This document shows positions 15,532 to 29,422 of a stretch of 64,000 nt of DNA, one piece after another. This DNA is from Alphaproteobacteria bacterium (GTDB taxonomy: Bacteria; Pseudomonadota; Alphaproteobacteria; UBA2966). The notes below the pieces were generated by a model, which saw nothing but the letters and a program-made list of their open reading frames with translations, searched no databases and was not told the DNA's origin. The stretch's first letter is position 1; every line of letters begins with the position of its first letter. Both the position numbers and the translations under genes were made by a program. The DNA is taken from positions 2,707,799 through 2,771,798 of the forward strand of contig CAXXKS010000001.1 in assembly GCA_963663355.2 (NCBI GenBank). The letters run 5' to 3'.

Positions 15532-17556
15532 ATGAGCGGGAGTACCGATACCGGACCGCGATCCGTCGCGCTTGTCGGTCCATACACCTCGGGAAAAACG
15601 ACACTTCTCGAGGCGATTCTGTTCGCCACGGAGGCAGTCCATCGAAAAGGGAACGCGAAGGACGGCAATACCGTCGGCGACGCGAGCCCCGAGGCGCGCG
15701 ACCGGCAGATGAGCACGGAGCTCAACGTCGCGACGACCACCTACCTCGGCGACGTCTTCACGTTTCTCGACTGTCCGGGCTCCATCGAGTTCTGGCAGGA
15801 CGGCGCCAACGCGCTGATGGGTGCCGACGCGGCCGTCGTCGTGTGCGAGCCGGCGGCGGACAAGGCGATCATGATGATGCCCGTGCTGCGCCGGCTCAGT
15901 GACATGGGCCTGCCCCATTTCATTTTCGTCAACAAGATGGACCGGGCGTCGTCCCCGGTCGGCGACCTCGTGACGGCCTTGCAGGAGGCCTCGGAAAAGC
16001 CTCTCGTGCTGCGGCAGTTGCCCATCCTCGACGGGGAGGCGGTGACCGGCTACGTCGATCTTCCCAGTCTTCGGGCCTTCACCTACAAGCCCGGTGCGGC
16101 GTCGGAAGCGGGCGGCATTCCCGACGGCATGGCCGACGACGTGGCGCAGGCCCGCTACGAGATGCTGGAGAAACTGGCCGATTTCGACGATACGCTGCTG
16201 GAGCAGCTTCTCGAGGACGTCGATCCCGAGCAGGACACCGCCTACAGGCACCTTTGCGACATCACTCGGGACGGACATGTCGTGCCCGTCCTGGTGGGCG
16301 CGGCGGAGCAAGGGGCCGGCGTCAACCGGCTGCTGAAGGCGCTGCGGCACGAGGTGCCGGCCGCGGACGCCGCCGCCGAGCGGGCGGGGGTCGCTCCCGA
16401 TGGCAGCGAACCCCTGGTGCAGGTCATCAAGTCCTTCAACACCCAGCACGGCGGCAAGCTGTCCGTCGCCCGGGTGTGGCGGGGTGCGGTCGTGGATGGG
16501 ATGACGCTCGGCGACGAGCGTGTTTCGGGCTTGTTCCGGCTCCTGGGTCAGCAGACGGAAAAGGTGGCCGAGGCGGCCGCAGGAGACATCGTCGGATTGG
16601 GCCGGCTCGAACGGGCCGTCACCGGCGTGACGCTGTCGACCGCGAAGGATGTGGCGCAGCTCCCGCGGGCGGCGGTGCCGCAGCCCGTCTATGCGTTGGC
16701 CATGACCGCCGCGGACCGCAACGACGAGGTCAAGGTCTCGGGGGCCGTGACCAGGCTGATCGAGGAAGATCCGTCGCTACGGTTCGAGCACGAGGACGAC
16801 ACGAAGCAATGGCTGCTGTGGGGGCAGGGCGAAATGCACCTGCGCGTCGCCGCGGACCGGCTGAAGAACCGTTCAGGTCTGTCGGTCAACGTGGAGCGCC
16901 CCAAAGTCCCGTACAAGGAGGCCATTCGCAAGGGAGTCTCGCAGCACTCGCGGTACAAGAAGCAGACTGGCGGCCACGGGCAGTTCGGCGACGTGCACAT
17001 CGACATCAAGCCGTTGCCGCGCGGTTCCGGCTTCCAGTTCGAGGGGAAGGTCGTGGGCGGCGCCGTGCCGCGCCAGTTCATCCCCGCCGTCGAGGCAGGC
17101 GTCCTCGATTTCCTGAACAGGGGGCCCCTCGGATTTCCCGTGGTCGACGTGTCGGTGACCCTGACGGACGGACAGCATCACGCGGTCGACAGCTCCGAGC
17201 TGGCGTTCAAGACGGCGGGCCGCATGGCCATGTCGGAGGGGCTGCCCAAGTGCGACCCGGTGCTTCTGGAGCCGATCCTGCACGTCGACGTCTCGGTGCC
17301 CTCGGAGCTCACGTCGCGGGTCAACAGCGTGGTGAGCAGCCGGCGCGGACAGATCCTGGGCTTCGACGCCCGTCCGGGCTGGCCGGGCTGGGATGTCCTG
17401 TCGGCCCAGTTGCCGCAGTCCGAGATGCACGACCTGATCATCGAGATACGCTCGCTCACCTCCGGCGTCGGCACGTTCGTCTGGAAGTTCGACCGCCTGC
17501 AGGAGTTGCACGGGCGTCTCGCGGACGAGGTCGTGGAAGCCTACGCGGCGGAGTGA
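15532..17556 (+). CDS. Elongation factor G-like protein (EF-G II paralog)
   Basis: EF-G domain layout (NKMD, GQGEMHL, KKQTGGHGQFG, DSSELAFK, LLEPI) with divergent G1 GPYTSGKTT and G3 DCPGS. Confidence 0.92.
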   Translation: MSGSTDTGPRSVALVGPYTSGKTTLLEAILFATEAVHRKGNAKDGNTVGDASPEARDRQMSTELNVATTTYLGDVFTFLDCPGSIEFWQDGANALMGADAAVVVCEPAADKAIMMMPVLRRLSDMGLPHFIFVNKMDRASSPVGDLVTALQEASEKPLVLRQLPILDGEAVTGYVDLPSLRAFTYKPGAASEAGGIPDGMADDVAQARYEMLEKLADFDDTLLEQLLEDVDPEQDTAYRHLCDITRDGHVVPVLVGAAEQGAGVNRLLKALRHEVPAADAAAERAGVAPDGSEPLVQVIKSFNTQHGGKLSVARVWRGAVVDGMTLGDERVSGLFRLLGQQTEKVAEAAAGDIVGLGRLERAVTGVTLSTAKDVAQLPRAAVPQPVYALAMTAADRNDEVKVSGAVTRLIEEDPSLRFEHEDDTKQWLLWGQGEMHLRVAADRLKNRSGLSVNVERPKVPYKEAIRKGVSQHSRYKKQTGGHGQFGDVHIDIKPLPRGSGFQFEGKVVGGAVPRQFIPAVEAGVLDFLNRGPLGFPVVDVSVTLTDGQHHAVDSSELAFKTAGRMAMSEGLPKCDPVLLEPILHVDVSVPSELTSRVNSVVSSRRGQILGFDARPGWPGWDVLSAQLPQSEMHDLIIEIRSLTSGVGTFVWKFDRLQELHGRLADEVVEAYAAE

Positions 17557-18456: not shown

Positions 18457-19443
18457 ATGTTGATCAAGGTTCGCAAGGGCTGGGAGCTCCCGGAATCGGC
18501 AGCGACGCCCGAAAGCGCTTTTCTCGACCGGCGCCGGCTCATGAAGGGACTCGCGGCGGGTGGCATCCTGGCGGGGGTGGGCTGTTTCGCGCGGCCAGCT
18601 TCGGCGGAGACGCCATGGGCGGACGCGCAGCGCGCCGATCCGTCGTTCCCGCTCTATCCCGTGGCGCGGAATTCGGCATATCGCGTGGAGCGGGATATCA
18701 CGGACGAGGAAACCAACGGCAAGTACAACAACTTCTACGAGTACGGATCCCACAAGGAGATCTGGCGCTCGGCGCAGAAGCTGGAGATCAGGCCGTGGGA
18801 GGTCCGCATAGAGGGCATGGTCGAGAAGGAGTTCACGATCGGGATCGACGACCTGCTGGCCGGGGTGCCGCTGGAGGAGCGGGTCTACCGTCACCGCTGC
18901 GTCGAGGCCTGGTCGATGGTCGCGCCGTGGACGGGATTCCCGCTCTCGGCATTGGTGGAGCTCGCCAAGCCGCTGGGTGGCGCGAAGTACGTGGAGATGG
19001 CGACGTTCGACAAGCCAGAGATGGCGCCGGGCCAACGGCAGTTCTGGTATCCTTGGCCCTACGTCGAGGGACTGACCATGGCCGAGGCGGCGAACGATCT
19101 CGCGTTCTTGGTGACGGGCGCCTACGGAAAGCCGCTGGCAAAGCAGCACGGCGCGCCACTACGGCTCGCGGTCCCGTGGAAGTACGGCTTCAAGTCGGTC
19201 AAGTCGATCGACCGGTTCACGTTCACCGACACGCGGCCGAAGACGTTCTGGGAAGAGGTCCAGGGCCGGGAATACGGCTTCTGGGCCAACGTCAACCCGG
19301 ACGTTCCTCATCCGCGATGGAGCCAGGCGACGGAACGCGTGCTCGGAACGGACGACCGGATCCCGACGGCGATCTATAACGGCTACGGCGAGTTCGTCGC
19401 CGGGCTCTACGACGGCATGGAAGGCGAACGGTTGTTCATGTAG
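18457..19443 (+). CDS. msrP: Protein-methionine-sulfoxide reductase catalytic subunit (Mo, Tat-exported)
   Basis: Tat motif DRRRLM, YNNFYEY, HRCVEAWS, QHGAPLRL.VPWKYGFKS, HPRWSQA. Confidence 0.94.
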   Translation: MLIKVRKGWELPESAATPESAFLDRRRLMKGLAAGGILAGVGCFARPASAETPWADAQRADPSFPLYPVARNSAYRVERDITDEETNGKYNNFYEYGSHKEIWRSAQKLEIRPWEVRIEGMVEKEFTIGIDDLLAGVPLEERVYRHRCVEAWSMVAPWTGFPLSALVELAKPLGGAKYVEMATFDKPEMAPGQRQFWYPWPYVEGLTMAEAANDLAFLVTGAYGKPLAKQHGAPLRLAVPWKYGFKSVKSIDRFTFTDTRPKTFWEEVQGREYGFWANVNPDVPHPRWSQATERVLGTDDRIPTAIYNGYGEFVAGLYDGMEGERLFM

Positions 19444-20111
19444 TGCCGGACGTGGTCGAGTTGGTCATCTTCGATTGCGACGGCGTGCTGGTGGACTCGG
19501 AGCCGGCCGCCAACCGTGTTCTGACGGAATGTCTGGCCGAGGCGGGCCTCCGCCTCACACGGTCGGAGGTTTACCGGGTGACGACCGGCCGTTCGATGAT
19601 ACAGGTCGTGGCGTGGGCGGAGCGTGCCCTGGGCCGTGCGTTGCCTCGGGATTTCGTCGCGCGGACTCAGGAGAGGACGTACAACGCTTTCGAGCGCGAG
19701 CTCCGGCCCGTGCCAGGCGCGGACGCGGCGCTCGACGCCATCGCGTCCGCCGGCGTCGCCTGTTGCGTCGCCTCGTCCGGCGACCACGACAAGATGACGG
19801 TCACGCTTGGGCTGACGGGCCTGCTCGACCGGCTCCAGGGCCGCATGTTCAGCACCTACGACGTCGCGCGCGGGAAGCCCGCTCCGGACGTCTTTCTCCT
19901 CGCTGCCCGGCGGCTCCGGGCGAACGCCGCGAACAGCGTCGTGATCGAGGACAGCCTGCCGGGCGTCGCCGGCGGCCTCGCCGCGGGCATGACCGTGTAC
20001 GGCTACGCGGCGGGCCGGGAGGCGCGGCGCAGGTCGCTCGCCGGGGCGGGCGCGAAGGTGTTCGACGATCTTCGCGACCTGCCCCGGTTGCTGGGGCTTT
20101 CCCCCGGCTGA
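19443..20111 (+). CDS. HAD-family hydrolase
   Basis: IFDCDGVLVDSE, KPAPD, IEDS..G. Confidence 0.9.
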   Translation: MPDVVELVIFDCDGVLVDSEPAANRVLTECLAEAGLRLTRSEVYRVTTGRSMIQVVAWAERALGRALPRDFVARTQERTYNAFERELRPVPGADAALDAIASAGVACCVASSGDHDKMTVTLGLTGLLDRLQGRMFSTYDVARGKPAPDVFLLAARRLRANAANSVVIEDSLPGVAGGLAAGMTVYGYAAGREARRRSLAGAGAKVFDDLRDLPRLLGLSPG

Positions 20112-20120
20112 GGGTCCGCT

Positions 20121-20741
20121 CTAAATCCCCGTCGGCAGATCCGCCGCCTGGGCCATCTCGCTGTCCTTGAACAGGTCCGGATTCTCGAGATAGGCGAACA
20201 GCATCGACGTGGAGTCCTGGCCCCAGAAGAGTTCGCCTTCGACGATGGCCGTCGGCACGCCGAAGAGGCCGAGCCCGACGGCGGCCTCCGTGTTTGCGCG
20301 GAGCTGGTCCTTGACCCCTTGATCGTTGATCAGCGTCTCGGCGTCGGCGACGCCCAGCTTGTCCGTCAGCCGGGTCCAACCCTCCGGGTCGCCCACGTCT
20401 TCTCCATGCCGCCAGATGTGATCGAATATCGTCTCGATCGCCGAGCCGTCGTTCCCCAGGGCGATGGCGAGGCGTAGCGGCGGCAGGGGCGGGAATGGAT
20501 GCTTGGGCGGCATGCGGAACGGGACGTTTGCCTGTCTCGCCTGCCAGATCCAGTGGCGATAGGTATAGACGCGCTTGCGCGGGATTTGAGCCGGGCCTTT
20601 GGTCTCGTGGTGCCGCAGCAGTCCCGCGAACAGCATGGGGCGGTACGAGATCGACACGTCGCCGGGCAGTTCCTTGAGCTGCTTCAATTGCAGATAGGCG
20701 AAACCCGAAAGAAAGTCGAAGTACCAGTCCAGAGTCCTCAT
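20121..20741 (-). CDS. 2-hydroxychromene-2-carboxylate isomerase / DsbA (GST-kappa) family protein
   Basis: WYFDFLSGFAY, HPF, GLFGVPT, FWGQD. Confidence 0.88.
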   Translation of the reverse strand: MRTLDWYFDFLSGFAYLQLKQLKELPGDVSISYRPMLFAGLLRHHETKGPAQIPRKRVYTYRHWIWQARQANVPFRMPPKHPFPPLPPLRLAIALGNDGSAIETIFDHIWRHGEDVGDPEGWTRLTDKLGVADAETLINDQGVKDQLRANTEAAVGLGLFGVPTAIVEGELFWGQDSTSMLFAYLENPDLFKDSEMAQAADLPTGI

Positions 20742-20911
20742 CCGTGTCTCCCATCGGCGCGTGGCGCGGACTCGAAATGAGTCCGGGGCGGGACGTGCGG
20801 ATTGACCGCGCCGCCAGACTGCCCGAAAAGGCGAAGCCGACTCAACCCGCAGGCCTCGGAGGCGGGGGCTCCCATGGACCGGAGGCCGATCATCCACTAA
20901 CAATCGACGCG

Positions 20912-21892
20912 ATGTGCCCGGCGGTCCCACCCCTCCATCCACCTCCGACGCCCGAGGCGCCGTCACGGGGGGCGAACGATTTTCTCGCGGACGTGCTCAA
21001 CGGCCTGGGCGGCTCGCCCAAGACCCTGCCGTGCAAATACTTCTACGATGCGCGCGGCTCCCGGCTCTTCGATCGGATATGCGCTCTCGAGGAGTACTAC
21101 CCGACGCGCGTCGAGACCGCGCTGCTCACGGAGCATGCCGACCGCATCGCCGCCGCGGCCGGACCGCGGGCGACCCTCGTCGAGTTCGGCGGCGGTTCCT
21201 GCGCGAAGGTGGGGATTCTGCTAGATGCGCTGGAATGCCCGCGCGCCTACGTCCCGATCGACATCTCCTACGACCACATGGCGGCGGCGGCGGCCCGGCT
21301 CGCCGCGGCGTATCCGGCGCTCGAGGTCCGGCCCGTTCCGGCCGACTACACGCGCCTCGCGGATCTGCCGCCCGACCTGCGAGGGACGGGCTGCACCGGC
21401 TTCTTTCCCGGATCGACGATCGGAAACTTCACCCCCCGCGACGCCCAGGCGTTCCTCGGCGACATGCGGCTCTGGCTCGGCGCAAACGGCCGCTTCCTGG
21501 TCGGCGTGGATCTGAAGAAGCCCGCGCCTGTCCTGCACGCGGCTTACAACGACGCGGCCGGGATCACGGCGGCTTTCAATCTCAACCTGCTGCGCCGCGT
21601 CAACCGTGAGACCGGCGCCGACTTCATCCTCGATAACTTCGAGCACGAGGCTCGCTATAACGAGATCGAGGGCCGGATCGAAATGCATCTGATCAGCCGT
21701 GAAGCCCAGCGCATCACGGTCGCGGGACGTGTCTTCCGTTTCACGGCCGGCGAGACGATTCACACCGAGAACTCCTACAAATACACTGTCGGGGAGTTTC
21801 ACGCGCTGGCCGCCCGCGCCGGATGGTCGGTCGAGGCTTGGTGGACGGACCGGGACGAGCTCTTCAGCGTCCACCTCCTGATCGCCCCCTGA
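20912..21892 (+). CDS. egtD: L-histidine N-alpha-trimethyltransferase
   Basis: PKTLPCKYFYD.RGS.LF..I..LEEYYPTR.E, VEFGGG, PGSTIGNF, AYND..G.TAAFNLN, IHTENSYKY; start uncertain. Confidence 0.93.
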   Translation: MCPAVPPLHPPPTPEAPSRGANDFLADVLNGLGGSPKTLPCKYFYDARGSRLFDRICALEEYYPTRVETALLTEHADRIAAAAGPRATLVEFGGGSCAKVGILLDALECPRAYVPIDISYDHMAAAAARLAAAYPALEVRPVPADYTRLADLPPDLRGTGCTGFFPGSTIGNFTPRDAQAFLGDMRLWLGANGRFLVGVDLKKPAPVLHAAYNDAAGITAAFNLNLLRRVNRETGADFILDNFEHEARYNEIEGRIEMHLISREAQRITVAGRVFRFTAGETIHTENSYKYTVGEFHALAARAGWSVEAWWTDRDELFSVHLLIAP

Positions 21893-21999
21893 GCGCTCGA
21901 GTCCGGCGTGGAGCACATGGCTGCAGGCATTCTCGGGACGCGACGCCGGCAAAACGCGCGGCCGGCTCCGCCGCCCGCCGGGCCGTCCGGATTGATGCG

Positions 22000-24285
22000 G
22001 TGAAAGCCGGCCCCGCACCGATCGTCAAGGACCTCGTGCTCGTCGGCGGCGGGCACAGCCACGTCATCGTGCTCAAGCGCTTCGGCATGAAGCCGATGCC
22101 GGGGGCGCGGGTCACGCTGATCTGCCGCGACGTGGAGACGCCGTACTCGGGAATGCTCCCCGGCCACATCGCCGGGCACTACACCCATGACGACATTCAC
22201 ATCGACCTGGGTCCCCTGACGCGCTTCGCCGGCGCGCGCTTCTACCACGACGAGGTCATCGGGCTCGATCCGGTCGAGCGGCGGGTGATCTGCCGCGGCC
22301 GGCCTCCGGTACGGTACGACGTGCTTTCCATCGACGTGGGATCCGCGCCGCGGATGCACGACGTGCCGAGCGCGGAGGGCGCGGTGGTGCCGGTCAAGCC
22401 GATCGGACACTTCGTCGCCCGGTGGGACGCGCTGGTCGAGCGGGTGCTCGGCGCCGGAGTCCCGTCGCGGATCGGTGTGGTGGGGGCCGGCGCCGGCGGC
22501 GTCGAGATGGTGCTCGCCATGCGGCACGGGCTTCGCCGCCGGCTGCGCGAGGCGGGAGGAGAGCCCGATCGGGTGAGCTTCGACCTGTTCACCGCCGGAA
22601 CCGAGGTGCTTCCCCGCAACCCGCTTCCCGTTCGGACCGCGTTCACCCGCGTGCTGGCCGAGCGCGGCGTGGGAGTTCATCTCGAGTCCCGCATCGAGCG
22701 TGTCGTTTCGGGGCCTCCGACCGCGCTGCACACGGCCGACGGCGCCGTGCATGAGCTCGACGAGGTTCTCTGGGTCACCCAGGCCGCCGCCCAGCCGTGG
22801 CTGACCGCGTCCGGACTTGCCACCGACGAGGACGGCTTCGTCGCGGTGCGGCCGACCCTCGAATCGATTTCCCATCCGGACGTCTTCGCCGCGGGCGACT
22901 GCGCCGCCGTGCTCGAGCATCCGCGCGAGAAGGCCGGGGTCTTCGCCGTCCGGCAGGGTCCGCCGCTCGCAAGGAACCTGCGCCGGGCGCTCCGCGGCAT
23001 CGCGCCGAAGCCGTTCGCTCCGCAGCGCCGCTACCTCAGCCTCATCAGTACCGGCGACCGGCGCGCCGTCGCCACCCGGGGCGGCCCGATCGTCCTCGAC
23101 GGAGCCTGGGTGTGGCGGTGGAAGGACTGGATCGACCGGCGCTTCATGCGCAAGTTCGCCGACCTTCCCGACATGGGCGACGACGCGAAGCTCGATCTGG
23201 CACGGGGGCTCGCCAGCGAGGACGCGATCAAGGAGCTCTCGGCCATCGCCATGCGCTGCGGCGGATGCGGGGCCAAGGTGGGTGCGACGGTGCTCGGGCG
23301 GGTGATGAACGGGATCGAGCCCGTGGTGCGCGACGACGTGCTCATCGGGCTTGCCGACCCGGACGATGCGGCGGTGGTGGAGACGCCGCCCGGCAAGGTG
23401 GTGGTGCATACCGTCGACTCCTTCCGCGCCATGATCGACGACCCGTACCTCTTCGGCCGTATCGCCGCCAACCACAGCCTCGGCGACATCTTCGCCATGG
23501 GCGGCGAGGCGCAGACCGCGCTCGCCATCGCCACGCTGCCCCACGGGATCGAGTCCCAGGTGGAGGACACGCTGAGCCAACTGATGGCCGGGGCGACGGA
23601 AGTGCTGCGCGAAGCCGGCGCTGCGCTCGTGGGCGGGCATACGAGCGAGGGCGCGGAGCTCGCGCTCGGGTTCGCGGTGAGCGGACTGATCGACCGGGAG
23701 AAGATCCTGCGCAAGGGTGGAATGCGTCCGGGCGACCGGCTGCTGGTCACCAAGCCGCTGGGCACCGGCACGCTCTTCGCCGCCGACATGCGGCACAAGG
23801 CGCGCGGGGCGTGGATCGCGGCGGCCCTCGAGTCGATGCAGCTCTCGAATCACGCGGGCGCCCGGTGCCTGCACCGTCACGGCGCAAGCGCGTGCACCGA
23901 CGTCACGGGCTTCGGGCTGCTCGGCCATCTGGTCGAGATGATCCGCGCCTCCGAGGTCGACGTGGAACTCGACCTGGAAGCCGTCCCGATCCTCCCGGGC
24001 GCCCTCGAAACCGTCGCGGCGGGGATCACGAGTTCCCTTCAGCCTCAGAACCTGCGGCTGCGCCGCGCGGTGCGCGACCTCGACCGGGTGGCCGGCGATC
24101 CCCGCTGGCCGCTCCTCTTTGATCCGCAGACCGCGGGAGGCCTGCTCGCGTCGGTCGCCGAAAGTGAGGCCGAGGCCCGCGTCGAAGAGCTGCGCTCGCT
24201 CGGCTACCCGCATACCGCGCTCATCGGCCGCGTCGTCGCCCCGAGCGGCGCCTTGGAGCCGATCACGCTGTCGGTTCGAGCGTGA
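22000..24285 (+). CDS. selD: Selenophosphate synthetase fused to an N-terminal FAD-dependent oxidoreductase domain (SenC role)
   Basis: N-terminal LVLVGGGHSH, PYSGMLPG, GAGAGGVE, FAAGDC, KAGVFAVRQG; C-terminal MRCGGCGAKV, DDAA, DIFAMG, GGHT, TKPLG.G, TDVTGFGLLGH, DPQTAGGLL. Confidence 0.93.
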   Translation: MKAGPAPIVKDLVLVGGGHSHVIVLKRFGMKPMPGARVTLICRDVETPYSGMLPGHIAGHYTHDDIHIDLGPLTRFAGARFYHDEVIGLDPVERRVICRGRPPVRYDVLSIDVGSAPRMHDVPSAEGAVVPVKPIGHFVARWDALVERVLGAGVPSRIGVVGAGAGGVEMVLAMRHGLRRRLREAGGEPDRVSFDLFTAGTEVLPRNPLPVRTAFTRVLAERGVGVHLESRIERVVSGPPTALHTADGAVHELDEVLWVTQAAAQPWLTASGLATDEDGFVAVRPTLESISHPDVFAAGDCAAVLEHPREKAGVFAVRQGPPLARNLRRALRGIAPKPFAPQRRYLSLISTGDRRAVATRGGPIVLDGAWVWRWKDWIDRRFMRKFADLPDMGDDAKLDLARGLASEDAIKELSAIAMRCGGCGAKVGATVLGRVMNGIEPVVRDDVLIGLADPDDAAVVETPPGKVVVHTVDSFRAMIDDPYLFGRIAANHSLGDIFAMGGEAQTALAIATLPHGIESQVEDTLSQLMAGATEVLREAGAALVGGHTSEGAELALGFAVSGLIDREKILRKGGMRPGDRLLVTKPLGTGTLFAADMRHKARGAWIAAALESMQLSNHAGARCLHRHGASACTDVTGFGLLGHLVEMIRASEVDVELDLEAVPILPGALETVAAGITSSLQPQNLRLRRAVRDLDRVAGDPRWPLLFDPQTAGGLLASVAESEAEARVEELRSLGYPHTALIGRVVAPSGALEPITLSVRA

Positions 24286-24324
24286 CGCGGTCCCCACGGC
24301 CCGCGCGCCCCGTCGCGTTTCGCG

Positions 24325-25302
24325 TCAGCGGTCCGAGAGCTCGCCGAGCAGCGCGGCCCAGGCCGCGCGCTCGCGCTCCGGCGCGAACCGATGGCGCCGC
24401 GCGTCGCCGTGCGCGCGCACCGCTTCGAGAAATTCGGGATCGGTCTCGGCGCGACGGAGTAGCGCATACAGGGCCTCGGTGTCGCCGGCGGGGTACAAGG
24501 CGGGATGGTCCGGGCCGAGCAGCCCGACGTTTCCGGGAATGTCGGACGCGATAACCGGCACGTGGGCCATCACGGCCTCCGAGACCGCGTTCGCGCCGCC
24601 CTCCATGAGCGAGCTCATCACCATCGCGCGGGCGCGCGCCAAGGCGCGCCGGACCCGCCAGCGCGGCACCTCCCCACGCCAGACGTAGCGCGGGTTCGCG
24701 GCCGTCTCGGCGCGCGCCGCCCGCGCGTGCGCCGCGTCGTGGGGCTTGCCGAGGTGGATGATCCGCAGCCTCGAGTCCTCCGGCGCCAGCCGGGCGGCGT
24801 ACGCCGCCCGGAATGGGTCCTTTTCGTCGCGCAGATGGCCGACGACGCACACGTCGAAGGTCCGCGAGGAGGGGGTTCCCGGCGTGGACAGGGGCAGCGC
24901 CGATTGATGGATGACCCGAAGCTTCGCGCGGAAGCGCGGCGGCAGGTCGCCGGCCACGAAATCGTGCAGGCCGACCAGCCGGTCGGCGGCCGCCATGGAT
25001 GCGATGGTGTCCTCCGGATGGCTGTATTGGAAACGGTAGATGTCGGTGCCGGACATGAGTACGACGAGAGGTCGGGAGGGATTGCGGTCGCGGAACGCGG
25101 CTACCGAGGACGCGCTCCGCCAAGCGTGGATGGCGATCAGAATGTCGGTGCTCTCCGGCCGGGCCGCGCCCGGCCACGCTTCTCCGACCGTCGCAGAATG
25201 GCCGAGGGACTCCAGGATCCGTGCCCACCGCGCGGCGGTCGCGCGGTTGCCGCTCCGCGACCGTTTCGCCGTCGGGGTGATCACGCTAATGTTCAGCGCC
25301 AT
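24325..25302 (-). CDS. senB: Selenosugar synthase, SenB-type GT-B glycosyltransferase
   Basis: SGNRATA.RW, HAWRS, SGTD, GHLRDEKDP, EGGANA.SEA, I.GNVGLLG; adjacent to selD. Confidence 0.88.
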   Translation of the reverse strand: MALNISVITPTAKRSRSGNRATAARWARILESLGHSATVGEAWPGAARPESTDILIAIHAWRSASSVAAFRDRNPSRPLVVLMSGTDIYRFQYSHPEDTIASMAAADRLVGLHDFVAGDLPPRFRAKLRVIHQSALPLSTPGTPSSRTFDVCVVGHLRDEKDPFRAAYAARLAPEDSRLRIIHLGKPHDAAHARAARAETAANPRYVWRGEVPRWRVRRALARARAMVMSSLMEGGANAVSEAVMAHVPVIASDIPGNVGLLGPDHPALYPAGDTEALYALLRRAETDPEFLEAVRAHGDARRHRFAPERERAAWAALLGELSDR

Positions 25303-25322
25303 GTCCTCGGGAAGTCCTCGCC

Positions 25323-26690
25323 TTGGTCGTCGGCGATAGTCCGGCCGCCCCGCCGCCGGCGGGCATCCCGCCGGTCAGGGAGGTCGGATCGGCAACGCTT
25401 GAAGCCTACATCCGCGATGCGCATTCGCGCACCCGGGAGTTGATCGACGACCTCACCGACGAGCAGCTCATGGGACCCCGGCTGCCCACCGTCAACCCGA
25501 TGCGGTGGGAGATCGGGCACGTCGCGTGGTTTCACGAGCACTTCATCCTGCAGCGCGTGTACGGCGAGGCGCCGTTGCTTGCCGACGGCCATGCGCTCTA
25601 CGATTCCATCGCCATCCATCACGACGCGCGCTGGGATCTGCCGCTGCCGTCGCGCGCGGACACCCTCTCCTACATGCGGCGGGTGCGCGATCGCCTGCTC
25701 GAAAGGCTCGGCTCCGGCTTGGCGAGCGCGGTGGACAGCTATCTCTACCGGTTCACGGCGTTCCACGAAGACATGCACGACGAGGCCTTCACGTGGACAC
25801 GCCAGACGCTCGCCTATCCGCGCCCCCGCCTCGCGGCGGCGTCCGATCCGGGGCCACCGACCGGCGTCGGCGCGGGCGACCTGCCCGGAGACGTGTCCGT
25901 GCCCGGCGGAGAGTTCCTGGCAGGCGCGCCGGGGGACGCGCCGTTCGTCTTCGACAACGAGAAGTGGTCCCATCCCGTGGAGATCCGGCCGTTCCGCATC
26001 GCGCGGGCGCCGGTGACCAATGTCCGGTTCGCCGAATTCGTGGACGACGGCGGTTATACGCGCCGTGAGCACTGGACGGACGCCGGGTGGCGGTGGCGTG
26101 AGTCCGCGAGGGCCGAACACCCCGTGTACTGGCGGCGCGACGGCGAGGGCGGATGGCTGGTCCGGCAGTTCGACGAGACGCTCCCGCTGCCCCCTCACCA
26201 GCCGGTCGTTCACGTCAACTGGCACGAGGCGAACGCGTGGTGCCGGTGGGCCGGTCGGCGCCTGCCCCGCGAACGCGAGTGGGAAGCGGCCGCCCTCGGC
26301 GAGGCCGCCGCGGACGGGGCGTTCCTCGCGGAGACCAAGCGGCGCTATCCCTGGGGCGGCGAGGCCGCGGAGGCCGCCCGCGCCAATCTGGACGGTCGCT
26401 CTCTTGGCTGCGTCGACGTCGCGGCGCTGCCGGAGGGCGACAGCGCGTTCGGCTGCCGCCAGATGCTGGGCAACGTCTGGGAGTGGTGCGCGGACGCATT
26501 CTGCCCGTACCCTGGCTTCGCTCCGGACGCCTACAAGGAGTATTCGCAGACCCTGTTCGGTCACACCCGGGTGCTGCGCGGCGGCGCGTGGATGACCCGC
26601 TCGCGCATGGTGACGGGCCTCTACCGGAACTTCTTCGACCCCGACCGCAACGACGTCTTCGCCGGATTCAGAACCTGCGCTGTGGAGTGA
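25323..26690 (+). CDS. senA: Selenoneine synthase, SenA-type (EgtB-like DinB + FGE-sulfatase domains)
   Basis: NP.RWEIGHVAWF.E, YDS, FHEDMHDEAF..TRQ iron motif, FDNEKW.H, RLP.E.EWE.AA, GNVWEW, RNFF, FAGFRTCA; start uncertain (TTG). Confidence 0.88.
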   Translation: MVVGDSPAAPPPAGIPPVREVGSATLEAYIRDAHSRTRELIDDLTDEQLMGPRLPTVNPMRWEIGHVAWFHEHFILQRVYGEAPLLADGHALYDSIAIHHDARWDLPLPSRADTLSYMRRVRDRLLERLGSGLASAVDSYLYRFTAFHEDMHDEAFTWTRQTLAYPRPRLAAASDPGPPTGVGAGDLPGDVSVPGGEFLAGAPGDAPFVFDNEKWSHPVEIRPFRIARAPVTNVRFAEFVDDGGYTRREHWTDAGWRWRESARAEHPVYWRRDGEGGWLVRQFDETLPLPPHQPVVHVNWHEANAWCRWAGRRLPREREWEAAALGEAAADGAFLAETKRRYPWGGEAAEAARANLDGRSLGCVDVAALPEGDSAFGCRQMLGNVWEWCADAFCPYPGFAPDAYKEYSQTLFGHTRVLRGGAWMTRSRMVTGLYRNFFDPDRNDVFAGFRTCAVE

Positions 26691-26802
26691 ACCTGTCCCG
26701 AACCGGGGCCACCTCACGCCCCACGTCATGGCCCGGCCCCCGGTCAGTCCGTTGCTGTCCGGCTTGGAAAGGCCGGACACGGTGCATGGCCTGGATTCGA
26801 GA

Positions 26803-27051
26803 GGGTTTTGGAAGATCGAGTCGAATCGAGGCTCGAAACGGAGCCCGAGCCATACGCCATCGAATGAATTCGCACAGTTCGCACAGAGTCGGGGGGCCGC
26901 CACCCGCATCCGCCTCCCCCGGGCACGCAGGCGTCCCGCCCGCATGTGCGGGCCAGAGGCTCGTGTCCATGAAACTTCGAGTAAATTATTGATTTATAAT
27001 AAAAATATTGCTACATCTACCCCTCCGATGTCGTGCGATGTGTGCGAATTC
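26803..27051 (+). repeat. Dispersed MITE-like element, copy 1
   Basis: Aligns by eye with the reverse complement of 55348-55578; core 26866-27051 bounded by GAATTCGCACAGTTCGCAC / GTGCGATGTGTGCGAATTC. Confidence 0.8.
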
Positions 27052-27300
27052 AAAACGAACCCGAGGGTCCCCTCCCCTGCTTGCGGGAGAGGAACAGGGT
27101 GAGAGTGTCCGCCATGAACCGGGCGGACGGACGTGGATGCCTGGAACGCCCCGGGACTTGATCCGGGAGCCGCGGCATGACGGCTCGGGGAGCGGCCCGT
27201 GCGGAGGGAACGGCGCCGATCCAACGACACGAACGATCCCGACGGAGACGAGCCACCCGTGGCTCAACGGCCTGGATGCACGTTGCTCGGGAGTTCCCCC

Positions 27301-27328
27301 AAAAAAAGCCGGGCCGCTGGGGCCCGGC
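27301..27328 (-). terminator. Rho-independent terminator
   Basis: GCCGGGCC-CCAGC-GGCCCGGC followed by T7 on the minus strand. Confidence 0.8.
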
Positions 27329-27453
27329 AGCTGTAACAGGGAGGCATTACGTCTGGGAGACGCAAATCGGTCGAATGTTGGGAGGGCCAACTCGACCTGC
27401 CTCGAGCGAACCGCCCGAGGCATCGTGGATATCGTGGGCACGATATCCACGAA
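27301..27453 (-). ncRNA. Putative small regulatory RNA in the AbcR-like position downstream of the LysR gene
   Basis: Four consecutive hairpins, three CUCCC anti-SD motifs, an intrinsic terminator, CATAT-type -10 and an upstream LysR palindrome. Confidence 0.65.
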
Positions 27454-27504
27454 GTCATATATGGTCTCGGCGGACGGCTACGGGTAGGCCCAAATGCTCA
27501 AACC

Positions 27505-27527
27505 AGCCATGCATTTTTTGCATGGCT
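27505..27527. promoter_or_regulatory. LysR-type binding site
   Basis: Perfect 9-bp inverted repeat AGCCATGCA-N5-TGCATGGCT containing T-N11-A, about 60 bp upstream of the inferred sRNA start. Confidence 0.6.
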
Positions 27528-27538
27528 CGGGAACGCCG

Positions 27539-28432
27539 TCAGAAACGCTCGCCCCTCACCTTTCGCACGAGAAAGTCGCGGAAAATGGCGACCCGCTTCG
27601 AATGCCTGAGTTCCTCGGGATAGACGAAGAAGGTGTCGAACGCCGGACCCTCGACCTCGGGAATGATCCGTGTCACCCGTGAGTGCCCCTGGACGATGTA
27701 ATCGGGCAAGCCGGCAATCCCCACGCCGGACTCGACCGCGAGGAGCGTGCTGTAGATGTTGTTCACCTTCAACGTCGGTCTCAGCCGCTTCCTGCTTCCC
27801 TTGTCGCCGAGGGTGAGAAGCCAGTTCACGTCGGCGATAACCGTCGGAGCTTCCTCGCCGTACACGATGAGCTTGTGGTCCGCCAGATCCTCGATCGTCG
27901 TGGGCGTTCCGTTACGGGAGAGGTAGTCCGGCGAGGCGTAGATGTGGCGGTGCACCTTGACGAGCTTCCGTTTCACGAGGTCGCCCTGCACCGGCTCGTG
28001 CATGCGGATGGCGATATCCGCCTCGCGCATCCCGAGGTCGAGCTCCCGGTCGTCGAGGATGAGGTGGAGCGTGACGTCCGGGTAATGTTCCGTGAACTCG
28101 CGGATGCGCGGCGTCAGCCAAGTCGAGCCGAACCCCACGGTCGTCGTCACCTTGAGCTCGCCCCGGGGTTTTTCGGCGGCGTCCGTGATCATGGCCTCGG
28201 TCATCGCCAGGCGCGCGGACACGTCGTGCGCGGTGCGATAGAGCGTCTCGCCCTGCTCGGTCAGAATGAGTCCGCGCGCGTGGCGGTGGAACAGCATGAC
28301 GCCAAGGTTCTCCTCCAGCGCGCCGACCTGCCGGCTGACGGCGGATTGACTGAGGTTCAGGGTTTCGCCGGCGTGGGTGAAACTGCCCGCTTCGGCCACG
28401 TCGTGGAATATCCTGAGCTTGTCCCAGTCCAT
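27539..28432 (-). CDS. LysR-family regulator, LsrB/VtlR-like
   Basis: MDWDKLRIFH..AEAGSFTHA...LSQSAVSRQ; directly downstream of trxB. Confidence 0.92.
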   Translation of the reverse strand: MDWDKLRIFHDVAEAGSFTHAGETLNLSQSAVSRQVGALEENLGVMLFHRHARGLILTEQGETLYRTAHDVSARLAMTEAMITDAAEKPRGELKVTTTVGFGSTWLTPRIREFTEHYPDVTLHLILDDRELDLGMREADIAIRMHEPVQGDLVKRKLVKVHRHIYASPDYLSRNGTPTTIEDLADHKLIVYGEEAPTVIADVNWLLTLGDKGSRKRLRPTLKVNNIYSTLLAVESGVGIAGLPDYIVQGHSRVTRIIPEVEGPAFDTFFVYPEELRHSKRVAIFRDFLVRKVRGERF

Positions 28433-28453
28433 GGTCCAGCCCGGCCGTCGCCG

Positions 28454-29422
28454 CTACTCCGCGGCCTCCCGCGCCGCGGCTTCGTGCTCCGCGAGGAACT
28501 TCTCGGCCTCCAACGCAGCCATGCATCCGGTGCCCGCCGCCGTCACCGCCTGGCGGTAGATCTTGTCCTGGACGTCTCCGGCGGCGAAGACGCCGGGGAC
28601 GTCGGTCGCCGTCGAGTCCGGCGCCGTCCTGATGTATCCCTCCTCGTCCATCTCGATCTGGCCGCGGAACAACTCCGTGGAGGGCGTGTGGCCGATGGCG
28701 ACGAAGACGCCGTCGACGGCGATCTTCCGGACCTCGCCGGTCCCCGTGTGCCGGAGCCTTGCTCCGGTCACGCCCGGAGGCTCCTGCTCGCCCAGGATCT
28801 CCTCGAGGACGTGATCCCACAGCACTTGGATTTTTTCGTTATCGAACAGGCGCTTCTGGAGGATCTTCTCCGCCCTGAGCCGATCCCGGCGATGGACCAG
28901 CGTGACCCGCCGGGCATGGTTGGTGAGATAGATCGCCTCCTCCACCGCCGTGTTCCCGCCGCCGACGACGACGACCTCCTTCTCGCGGAAGAAGAACCCG
29001 TCGCAGGTGGCGCAGGCCGACACGCCGAAGCCCTTGAACTTCTCCTCGCTGGGGAGGCCGAGCCAGCGCGCCTGCGCGCCCGTGGCGACGATCAAAGAAT
29101 CGCCGCTATAGGTGTTTCCGGAATCGCCCTGGGCGGCGAAGGGACGGGACGAGACGTCGATCTCCGTGATCGTGTCGTCGATCAGCTCGGCCTCGACGGT
29201 GCGGGCCTGCTCGGCCATTTGCTCCATGAGCCAGGGTCCTTGGACGATCTCGGAGAATCCCGGATAGTTCTCCACGTCGGTGGTGACGGTCATTTGCCCG
29301 CCCGGTTCCATCCCGCGAACCACCATCGGCGCGAGGCTGGCCCGGGCGGCATAGATCGCGGCGGTATACCCCGCCGGGCCGGACCCGACGATCAGGACCC
29401 GGCTGTGTTTGTGCTGGCTCAT
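28454..29422 (-). CDS. trxB: Thioredoxin reductase
   Basis: [36 protein letters not shown]. Confidence 0.97.

Follow-up and report, generated by a model that had tools for sequence, protein, structure and literature searches.

The pathway to the selenium antioxidant selenoneine (sen), the subset of sen clusters that carries egtD, and the fusion of an NADH dehydrogenase-like (Ndh) domain to selenophosphate synthetase (SelD) are already described in published work (preprint 10.1101/2022.04.13.486033; PMC2398784; PMC4561486). The reference system is senABC of Variovorax paradoxus, and the same preprint describes a co-localised egtD in a small share of the sen clusters. A related selenium system is the ovoselenol (ovs) cluster, where OvsA and OvsM are found with senBC, and the hosts described are aquatic gammaproteobacteria (Kayrouz et al., 2024, PMC11030361). 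The ergothioneine genes egtABCDE encode type I EgtB (PDB 4x8b), a member of the same DinB+FGE fold family as SenA, with the same His triad and catalytic Tyr and with EgtD-made hercynine as substrate. The published Ndh-SelD fusions are common in selenoprotein-making genomes and are linked to selenocysteine use; as described, a CxxC motif marks the SelD active site in all of them (Zhang et al., 2008, PMC2398784; Mariotti et al., 2015, PMC4561486).

The 64,000-nucleotide stretch of DNA analysed here (the window) very probably contains, to judge from its sequence, a small accessory island with a complete selenoneine cluster of the published type (Table 1). The organism is related to alphaproteobacterial metagenome-assembled genomes (MAGs), unlike the hosts described for ovs. 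A first-pass annotation had proposed a sen-type cluster with its own egtD, and this is borne out: all four proteins exceed curated family cut-offs, and thus the four family assignments are far beyond chance. Its account of the four genes stands as to open reading frames, coordinates and every motif quoted, with two corrections, namely that senB lies on the minus strand and that the start of the SelD fusion is uncertain. The estimated contamination of the assembly is 7.1%.

Table 1. Features of the predicted selenoneine island (positions are those of the window)
Feature	Position	Strand	Size and start
Accessory island with the whole cluster on board	20791..27300		6.5 kb
egtD, histidine N-alpha-trimethyltransferase (hercynine-making)	20912..21892	+	326 aa from ATG 20912
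Ndh-like FAD/NAD(P)H oxidoreductase-SelD fusion, SenC role (predicted selenophosphate synthetase)	21823 or 22000..24285	+	
senB, predicted selenosugar synthase (GT-B Se-glycosyltransferase)	24325..25302	-	325 aa
senA, predicted non-haem iron selenoxide (selenoneine) synthase	25323..26690	+	455 aa from TTG 25323
Right end of island, non-coding, mosaic of dispersed intergenic repeats	26691..27300		

The locus shares with V. paradoxus senABC (preprint 10.1101/2022.04.13.486033) the SenA, SenB and SelD-type SenC families and the diagnostic residues of SenA and SenB. It differs in having a flavoprotein domain joined to the N-terminus of SenC, a senB that points the opposite way to its neighbours, and egtD within the cluster. 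The gap between senB and the SelD fusion, with which it converges, is 39 bp, and that to the divergent senA is 20 bp. A search for SenA relatives kept 80 loci, mostly unrelated FGE-domain genes; only four are close (L023–L026, 55–62% identity), and these together with L028 were the relatives taken into further analysis. The order [Ndh-SelD >][< senB][senA >] is found in 10 of the 14 SenA loci examined with their flanks, and the fusion itself is present in 11.

The pathway chemistry can be proposed by homology to the reconstituted V. paradoxus pathway. EgtD would trimethylate histidine to hercynine, and the SelD domain of the fusion, in the SenC role, would convert selenide and ATP to selenophosphate. 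SenB would then join selenophosphate to a UDP-sugar, probably UDP-GlcNAc, and cleave the Se-P bond to give a selenosugar. In the last step SenA, with Fe(II) and O2, would couple the selenosugar to C2 of hercynine, and collapse of the selenoxide would give selenoneine.

The EgtD assignment is clear (TIGR03438, 400.6 bits against a cut-off of 290.9; Pfam Methyltransf_33, E 1.4e-110). Its gene is the only egtD in the genome, and within the genus egtD exceeds the cut-off in exactly the three of six species that have SenA. An adjacent egtD is found at only two of the 14 SenA loci, both within this genus, and the placement differs: here the gene is upstream of SelD, and in the second species (G005) it is downstream of senA. 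The direct contact between egtD and the sen genes resembles the egtD-bearing subset described in the preprint (10.1101/2022.04.13.486033), and it implies that the cluster supplies its own hercynine. No EgtB exceeds its cut-off anywhere in the genome, an absence first reported here. With a sole egtD and no EgtB, the hercynine would therefore be for selenoneine and not for ergothioneine.

The proposed check of the SenB model came out in favour of the assignment, with TIGR04348 giving 389.1 bits (cut-off 300). Among solved structures the protein's best relatives are the SenB chains 8jjn, 8jjq and 8fbx (E ~6e-51 to 8e-51), and the motifs read SGNRAT, SGTDIY, GHLRDEKDP and EGGANAVSEA. The SenB literature gives Lys158 as catalytic, N20, T23 and E231 as sugar-donor residues, and EGGAHV as a conserved motif. 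In published numbering, N20, T23, H58, R61, T85, D86, Q131, R155, K158, E231 and E239 are all kept; alignment to chain 8jjn places Lys158, N20, T23 and E231 at K161, N19, T22 and E234 of this protein. There are two departures, T83 to Ser and H235 to Asn. The second falls in the EGGAHV motif, which reads EGGANA here with Asn238 as the His235 equivalent; part of the activity is retained in published H235 mutants.

The boundaries of the island are sharp. On one side it borders on the region upstream of a DsbA-like gene, on the other on the terminator of a LysR-family gene. At the syntenic site of four sister species (G001, G002, G004 and contig C3 of G005), window position 20790 is joined straight to 27301, and the absence of the 6.5-kb island from this site in these species is a new observation. 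The GC content of the island is 0.702, against 0.669 in the flanking 10 kb on each side. Three of the six species in the genus have the island, each at a different place. TrxB-like, LysR and DsbA-like neighbours were considered as cluster members and rejected, since sister species without the island have them in the same syntenic arrangement.

The SenC role is assigned to a fusion protein whose two domains each exceed a curated cut-off. The N-terminal oxidoreductase domain (residues 70–445) scores 485.6 bits with TIGR03169 (cut-off 310), and the SelD domain (residues 477–782) scores 305 bits with TIGR00476 (cut-off 125); TIGR04369, 'fusion_not_SelD', a model of an oxidoreductase/SelD-related fusion, stays below its cut-off (490.7 against 700). 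Translation may start at ATG 21823, with a 70-nt overlap with egtD, or at GTG 22000; similarity to relatives, like the match to the family model, sets in near residue 65–70. The SelD motifs, numbered along the fusion, are CGGCGAK (479), DVTGFG (693) and DPQT (767). The CxxC is C479-G-G-C482, and in an alignment to E. coli SelD (chain 3u0o) the catalytic Cys17 and Lys20 correspond to C482 and K485.

In its N-terminal NADH-dehydrogenase-like domain, its Cys-type SelD and its active-site CxxC the protein is like the fusions of Zhang et al. (2008, PMC2398784) and Mariotti et al. (2015, PMC4561486). As those sources describe them, the published fusions are tied to selenocysteine, whereas the fusion here and those at 10 further loci occur with sen genes, adjacent in nine. 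We found no paper that links Ndh-SelD fusions to sen clusters; fused SenC genes, or egtD-bearing clusters of the present type, may be shown in the supplements to the Kayrouz papers of 2022 and 2024. In a JACS 2026 table, 'Lpd / pyruvate dehydrogenase E3' is listed near 4.0% of the genes for enzymes of the non-haem iron sulfoxide/selenoxide synthase (NHISS) family; our guess is that this is the same flavoprotein domain under another name.

The first-pass annotation had noted that selA, selB, tRNA-Sec and selU are not in the window, and this is correct: selA, selB and tRNA-Sec are at C1:2288909-2293280, about 440 kb from the cluster, and selU was not found in a genome-wide search. It had also taken SelD to serve a selenium use other than selenocysteine or selenouridine. 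As regards selenocysteine this does not hold up, given that in a profile search of the genome the fusion is the only SelD over the cut-off. As the sole SelD, it is most likely a supplier of the selA/selB/tRNA-Sec system as well. Sharing with selenocysteine synthesis is thus probable, and what counts against it is selA, which in this assembly is divided into two frames by a frame shift near C1:2289630 and is intact in all five sister species. A search for the formate dehydrogenase alpha subunit, the only type of selenoprotein sought, yielded nothing above the cut-off, and none of the matches had an in-frame stop.

This raises the question of whether the fused SelD is essentially a housekeeping selenocysteine enzyme, with its place by senB and senA a matter of gene order and not of a dedicated SenC role. 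Its status as sole SelD beside a selenocysteine gene set and the prevalence of such fusions in selenoprotein-making genomes, as described in PMC2398784 and PMC4561486, are in keeping with that. We consider it improbable, however: the fusion accompanies senB and senA in the conserved order given above, it lies inside an island that sister species lack, and three SenA-less sister species have a different Ndh-SelD (55–59% protein identity to the island fusion) that adjoins selA, a finding new to this work. Moreover, a part in selenocysteine synthesis is compatible with dual use under the selenoneine reading and is not opposed to it.

The segment with the separate Ndh-SelD is missing in the present genome. 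Native SelD beside selA is absent from all three island-bearing species and from none of the three island-less ones, and this pairing suggests one SelD serving two selenium pathways. One guess for the fused flavoprotein domain is that it provides the SelD active site with reduced selenium. A more specific proposal is that in this genus the island fusion replaced the native SelD by selA and feeds both selenocysteine and selenoneine, with the Ndh-like domain as an in-cis reductase that delivers selenide to the CxxC. We regard this as doubtful; if true, a 6.5-kb mobile island would be enough to take histidine, a UDP-sugar and oxidised selenium to selenoneine.

For the NHISS enzyme, the sequence supports a SenA-like protein and not a canonical EgtB, as the first-pass annotation had claimed. 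The SenA model NF041186 passes (491 bits, cut-off 420) and the EgtB model TIGR03440 fails (318.2 bits, cut-off 360). The motifs are WEIGH at residue 62 and HEDMH at 148, and the iron triad H66/H148/H152 and catalytic Y404 are retained. H100 is at the position of EgtB Arg87 and F438 at that of Asp416, in an alignment to 4x8b where these are chain residues Arg88 and Asp417; the deposited chain appears to be offset by one residue, which holds at the three His ligands. According to the preprint, every SenA protein has His in place of Arg87 and Phe or Tyr in place of Asp416 (Kayrouz et al., 2022, preprint 10.1101/2022.04.13.486033).

Overall similarity gives a different ranking. The protein scores highest with Halomonas OvsA, namely 335.6 bits with chain 8ux5 and 325.8 with wild-type 8u41, followed by mycobacterial EgtB (249.3 bits) and the distant V. 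paradoxus SenA (220.7 bits, in two stretches). Because it is nearer in this respect to OvsA and EgtB than to V. paradoxus SenA, the basis of the SenA call is the NCBIfam model together with the motif and a quick tree. For the alignment, 76 of 150 representatives (those of 395–480 aa) were joined by the window protein to give 77 rows. The nine-site motif HHHHYYNFF is present in nine of the 77, the window protein included, and HHHHYYNFY in 14; the EgtB motif HRHHYYNWD is present in 13 and the OvsA motif in one. Before tree building, 21 rows were removed in which the iron triad or the catalytic Tyr was out of alignment, a sign of fragments or of predictions with frame shifts. In the tree of the remaining 56 rows, the window protein falls within a 27-row group (SH-aLRT 88) in which 25 rows have a SenA motif, and the 13 EgtB-motif rows are in a separate 19-row group (support 99). 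The phylogeny asked for earlier therefore places the protein with SenA-motif rows and apart from EgtB-motif rows, with moderate support.

The locus shares the selenosugar cassette with the ovs cluster (PMC11030361), and OvsA is the closest solved structure by sequence. If this were an ovs cluster, the NHISS enzyme would be an OvsA that selenylates free histidine at C5. Y407, N436 and F437 are found here at OvsA positions M401, Q430 and A431, and replacement of M/Q/A by Y/N/F in OvsA is reported to switch the substrate from histidine to hercynine and the position from C5 to C2 (Kayrouz et al., 2024, PMC11030361). The higher-scoring chain, 8ux5, is this engineered YNF mutant, which differs from 8u41 only at the three aligned Y/N/F positions. 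The adjoining methyltransferase is an EgtD above the equivalog cut-off, not an ovothiol-type N-pi-methyltransferase such as would correspond to ovsM, and the sole row with the OvsA motif lies outside the 27-row group. An ovoselenol product is thus very improbable.

Scarcely credible is a sulfur product made by EgtD and an atypical EgtB, from an ergothioneine cluster that happens to lie beside selenium genes; such a cluster would not need egtA, egtC or egtE. The EgtB model still gives 318.2 bits and V. paradoxus SenA, as described in the preprint (10.1101/2022.04.13.486033), turns over thioglucose as a very poor substrate, but the protein passes the SenA cut-off and not that of EgtB, the thiol-binding Arg87/Asp416 pair has become His and Phe, a SenB equivalog and SelD directly adjoin senA in a conserved order, and the donor is predicted to be selenium from SenB where the ergothioneine pathway uses a thiol.

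The selenoneine reading holds, because the curated models pass, EgtB fails, and the Y/N/F residues, the two substitutions and the tree agree with it. No DinB+FGE protein other than SenA was found in the genome, and none of the four other FGE-domain proteins checked has a DinB domain. The earlier expectation that automated annotation would call the locus ergothioneine biosynthesis is out of date, since the current NCBIfam equivalog models NF041186 and TIGR04348 both pass.

The locus adds one more predicted selenoneine producer, which carries little weight alone, as the pathway was reconstituted in 2022 and NCBI models name the genes. Of more interest for selenium metabolism may be a cleanly bounded island present in half of the species of a genus. 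In addition, the predicted SenC role in these alphaproteobacterial-type clusters is usually filled by an Ndh-SelD fusion, and the absence of native SelD that goes with island possession is a pointer to one SelD for two selenium pathways.

The non-coding right end of the island shows no homology to the cluster copy in G005, and its two open reading frames have no Pfam match. Pieces of ~240 bp, 130 bp and 50 bp from it recur genome-wide, with several hundred match rows in a blastn search against the genome. An Rfam scan of positions 19000–29000 gave only a sub-threshold SorX-like match, and no riboswitch or leader for the cluster. A promoter/terminator scan gave one promoter-like site against 0.5 expected and six terminator-like sites against 3.1 expected.

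The four contiguous genes described by the first-pass annotation as a selenoneine cluster are all borne out as real open reading frames, each passing an NCBIfam family model, and every motif it quoted is found in the translated proteins (see table). It missed the inversion of senB, which lies on the minus strand, convergent with the fusion gene (39 bp gap) and divergent from senA (20 bp gap). Pfam domains are Methyltransf_33 in EgtD, Pyr_redox_2, AIRS and AIRS_C in the fusion protein, Glycos_transf_1 in SenB, and DinB_2 with FGE-sulfatase in SenA.

Genes of the selenoneine cluster (window positions)
Gene	Position	Strand	Evidence
egtD	20912-21892	+	ORF; NCBIfam EgtD 400.6 bits (cut-off 290.9)
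Ndh-SelD fusion gene	ATG 21823 or GTG 22000 to 24285	+	TIGR03169 and SelD models
senB	24325-25302	-	NCBIfam SenB 389.1 bits (cut-off 300)
senA	25323-26690	+	NCBIfam SenA 491 bits (cut-off 420)

The selenophosphate synthetase is a fusion with a flavoprotein oxidoreductase domain (Ndh-SelD). Its N-terminal half matches TIGR03169, ‘pyridine nucleotide-disulfide oxidoreductase N-terminal to SelD’, at 485.6 bits (cut-off 310), and its C-terminal half the SelD model at 305 bits (cut-off 125). The look-alike family TIGR04369, a ‘not SelD’ fusion, was considered and fails (490.7 bits vs a cut-off of 700). The first of the two possible starts would give a 70-nt overlap with egtD. In the SelD domain, C482 and K485 align with C17 and K20 of Escherichia coli SelD (3u0o), and there is a C479-x-x-C482 motif, as is likewise reported for all Ndh-SelD fusions by Zhang et al. 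(2008; PMC2398784). Ndh-SelD is described as the commonest SelD fusion and is predicted to retain SelD activity (Mariotti et al., 2015; PMC4561486).

SenB was aligned to the Variovorax paradoxus SenB chain 8jjn, with sites taken from the mutagenesis work reported in PMC10891094. K161 is the equivalent of the catalytic K158, and N19, T22 and E234 are kept (N20, T23 and E231 of 8jjn), as are H59, R62, T86, D87, Q133, R158 and E242. Relative to 8jjn, T83 is changed to Ser and H235 to Asn, and the EGGAHV motif reads EGGANA.

SenA belongs to the non-haem iron sulfoxide/selenoxide synthases, together with EgtB and the ovoselenol enzyme OvsA, and it retains the iron triad (H66, H148, H152) and the catalytic tyrosine Y404. 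The claim that it is not an EgtB held in both the model scores and a quick tree: the protein passes the SenA model, falls below the cut-off of the EgtB model (318.2 bits vs 360) and does not cluster with canonical EgtB. All SenA proteins are reported to replace EgtB Arg87 by His and Asp416 by Phe or Tyr (2022 preprint 10.1101/2022.04.13.486033); H100 and F438 align at these positions here. A search of 1.84 billion representative proteins provided 76 near-full-length matches, which were aligned with the window's protein. In a tally of nine sites, the SenA-like motifs HHHHYYNFY (14 rows) and HHHHYYNFF (nine rows, the window's protein among them) form the largest classes; the EgtB-like HRHHYYNWD is in 13 rows and the OvsA-like HHHHYMQAY in a single row. 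Rows with an intact iron triad and tyrosine, 56 in all, went into a quick maximum-likelihood tree, whose support values are provisional. It places the protein inside a 27-row group (support 88), 25 members of which have a SenA motif, and sets all 13 EgtB-motif rows apart in another group of 19 (support 99).

The closest solved structures overall are OvsA chains (8ux5, 335.6 bits; 8u41, 325.8 bits), which outscore mycobacterial EgtB (4x8b, 249.3 bits) and V. paradoxus SenA (8k5i, 220.7 bits), and therefore the possibility was considered that the enzyme is an OvsA and the product ovoselenol. However, M401, Q430 and A431 of OvsA are reported as the three residues that decide substrate and regiochemistry, and their change to Y, N and F as converting OvsA into a SenA (PMC11030361). 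Chain 8ux5 is this YNF mutant and, in the alignments obtained, differs from the wild type only at these three positions, with which Y407, N436 and F437 of the window's enzyme align; the latter thus has the hercynine-type motif. In addition, the OvsA-motif row is outside the enzyme's group in the quick tree.

As a SenA, the enzyme would act last in the pathway predicted by homology from these assignments. EgtD would form hercynine, SelD selenophosphate and SenB a selenosugar, which SenA would join to C2 of hercynine, the selenoxide collapsing to selenoneine. The coupling step is modelled on the V. paradoxus enzymes, with which the reaction is reported to have been reconstituted in vitro (2022 preprint 10.1101/2022.04.13.486033). 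One speculative role for the flavoprotein domain is to reduce selenium for use at the CxxC site.

The assembly (4.2 Mb, seven contigs, 100% complete, 7.1% contamination), in which the window is C1:2707799-2771798, was searched for other selenium and hercynine genes. The genome has no egtD besides the cluster's and no EgtB above cut-off, the four next-best matches to the EgtB model being FGE-sulfatase proteins without a DinB domain; thus hercynine has no evident use besides selenoneine. The EgtB model has 14 matches in the genome, where several FGE-domain genes are scattered; two paralogues (C7:5866-7290 and C1:1012340-1013788) have ankyrin repeats as well as an FGE-sulfatase domain.

The fused SelD had been read as apparently serving a use other than selenocysteine or selenouridine. 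It is the sole SelD above cut-off in the genome, and selU was not found genome-wide, yet selA and selB (C1:2288909-2292205) and tRNA-Sec (C1:2293186-2293280) are present about 440 kb from the cluster. The non-selenocysteine proposal therefore fails at the genome level, and we infer that the single SelD also serves selenocysteine. In this assembly selA (C1:2288909-2290265) is in two frames joined near C1:2289630 (near position 810 of the retrieved locus L015). The split, at a run that is not homopolymeric, looks like one extra base, from a pseudogene or an assembly error; each of the five sister species of the genus (G001-G005) has an intact selA. A genome search for a selenocysteine-type formate dehydrogenase gave nothing above cut-off and no in-frame stop.

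Three sister species without SenA (G001, G002, G004) have a different Ndh-SelD directly adjoining selA, with 66% nucleotide and 55–59% protein identity to the fusion described here. The approximately 6-kb segment that carries the native selD in G001 is missing from the window's genome, with about 240 bp in its place, and no second, selA-linked copy was seen in the DNA comparison of G003 and G005, which have SenA. The selA-linked SelD is thus in none of three species with the cluster and in all three without it, a pattern from six related genomes, a small and non-independent sample, which suggests that the cluster's SelD replaced the native one. Downstream of the native selD, the missing G001 segment also holds a gene for a GmrSD-type restriction endonuclease and a fragment of a DDE transposase (positions 10615-13606 of L116, G001:C1:1868000-1886000).

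Counting the window's genome, SenA is above cut-off in four of 61 genomes of a sample of relatives, three of them among the genus's six species, and in eight of 401 of a class-wide sample. Within the genus, egtD is above cut-off in exactly the three members with SenA. G005 has the same genes elsewhere (81–93% protein identity) in the order Ndh-SelD, senB, senA, egtD; G003 has a more distant copy (57–71%), inverted and a few kb from the site that the cluster occupies in the window, with egtD on a different contig. Of the named relatives, MAGs assigned to the Alphaproteobacteria or Rhodospirillales come closest (56–62% identity). Fourteen SenA loci were viewed with their flanks (the window, L117-L119, L134-L139 and L023-L026). 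The core order [Ndh-SelD >][< senB][senA >] is found in ten; the fusion is about 3 kb off in L023, SelD is unfused in L025 (a Rubrobacteraceae MAG), and L135 and L138 are without SelD nearby. Only the window and G005 have egtD adjacent.

The sen pathway is already published, with a count of 827 sen clusters, as is the Ndh-SelD fusion (PMC2398784, PMC4561486); the open-access text, supplements apart, yielded no statement that SenC of sen clusters is often an Ndh-SelD fusion. Automated annotation had been expected to label the cluster as ergothioneine biosynthesis, but NCBI models name SenA and SenB, so that current automated annotation would mislabel neither. The first-pass observation was sound and its interpretation mostly right, apart from the inferences on SelD use and annotation.

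The five sister species were compared with the window over 16.5 kb around the cluster, with local re-alignment. Position 20790 joins 27301 directly in G001, G002, G004 and contig C3 of G005; thus 20791-27300 is a 6.5-kb insertion or deletion. On the left it ends upstream of a DsbA-like gene, and on the right it abuts the terminator T-run of a LysR-family gene; no flanking direct repeat was seen at the junctions. GC content is 0.702 vs 0.669 on either side. TrxB-like, LysR and DsbA-like neighbours were considered as cluster members, but their synteny extends to species that lack the island, and hence they do not belong to the cluster. More widely, the window consists of core chromosome, with uvrB, carAB, dnaG, rpoD and moeA.

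The last 610 bp of the island (26691-27300) are non-coding and, by blastn, a mosaic of repeats dispersed through the genome (C1-C7). A repeat of about 50 bp (approximately 27060-27109) has well over a hundred matches genome-wide, some copies on C5 being tandem-like with a spacing of about 180 bp, and elements of about 240 and 130 bp have roughly 10–20 copies each. Against the 67% GC of the genome, an AT-rich segment of some 40 bp (approximately 27010-27050) is conspicuous. Exactly at the right boundary, 27302-27372 (minus strand) resembles the SorX sRNA of Rfam below threshold (38.5 bits vs a gathering threshold of 46.6, E 1.4e-6); the match takes in the terminator and 3′ end of the LysR-family gene, and its sequence conservation extends to sister species. 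A second small insertion or deletion (19453-20115) corresponds to a gene for a HAD-family hydrolase (19443-20111), which G003 has as well (70% protein identity) but which G001, G002, G004 and G005 lack at this site. Just upstream of the region (15532-17556) is an EF-G-like paralogue that has the full set of five EF-G domains and whose synteny holds across all five sister species.
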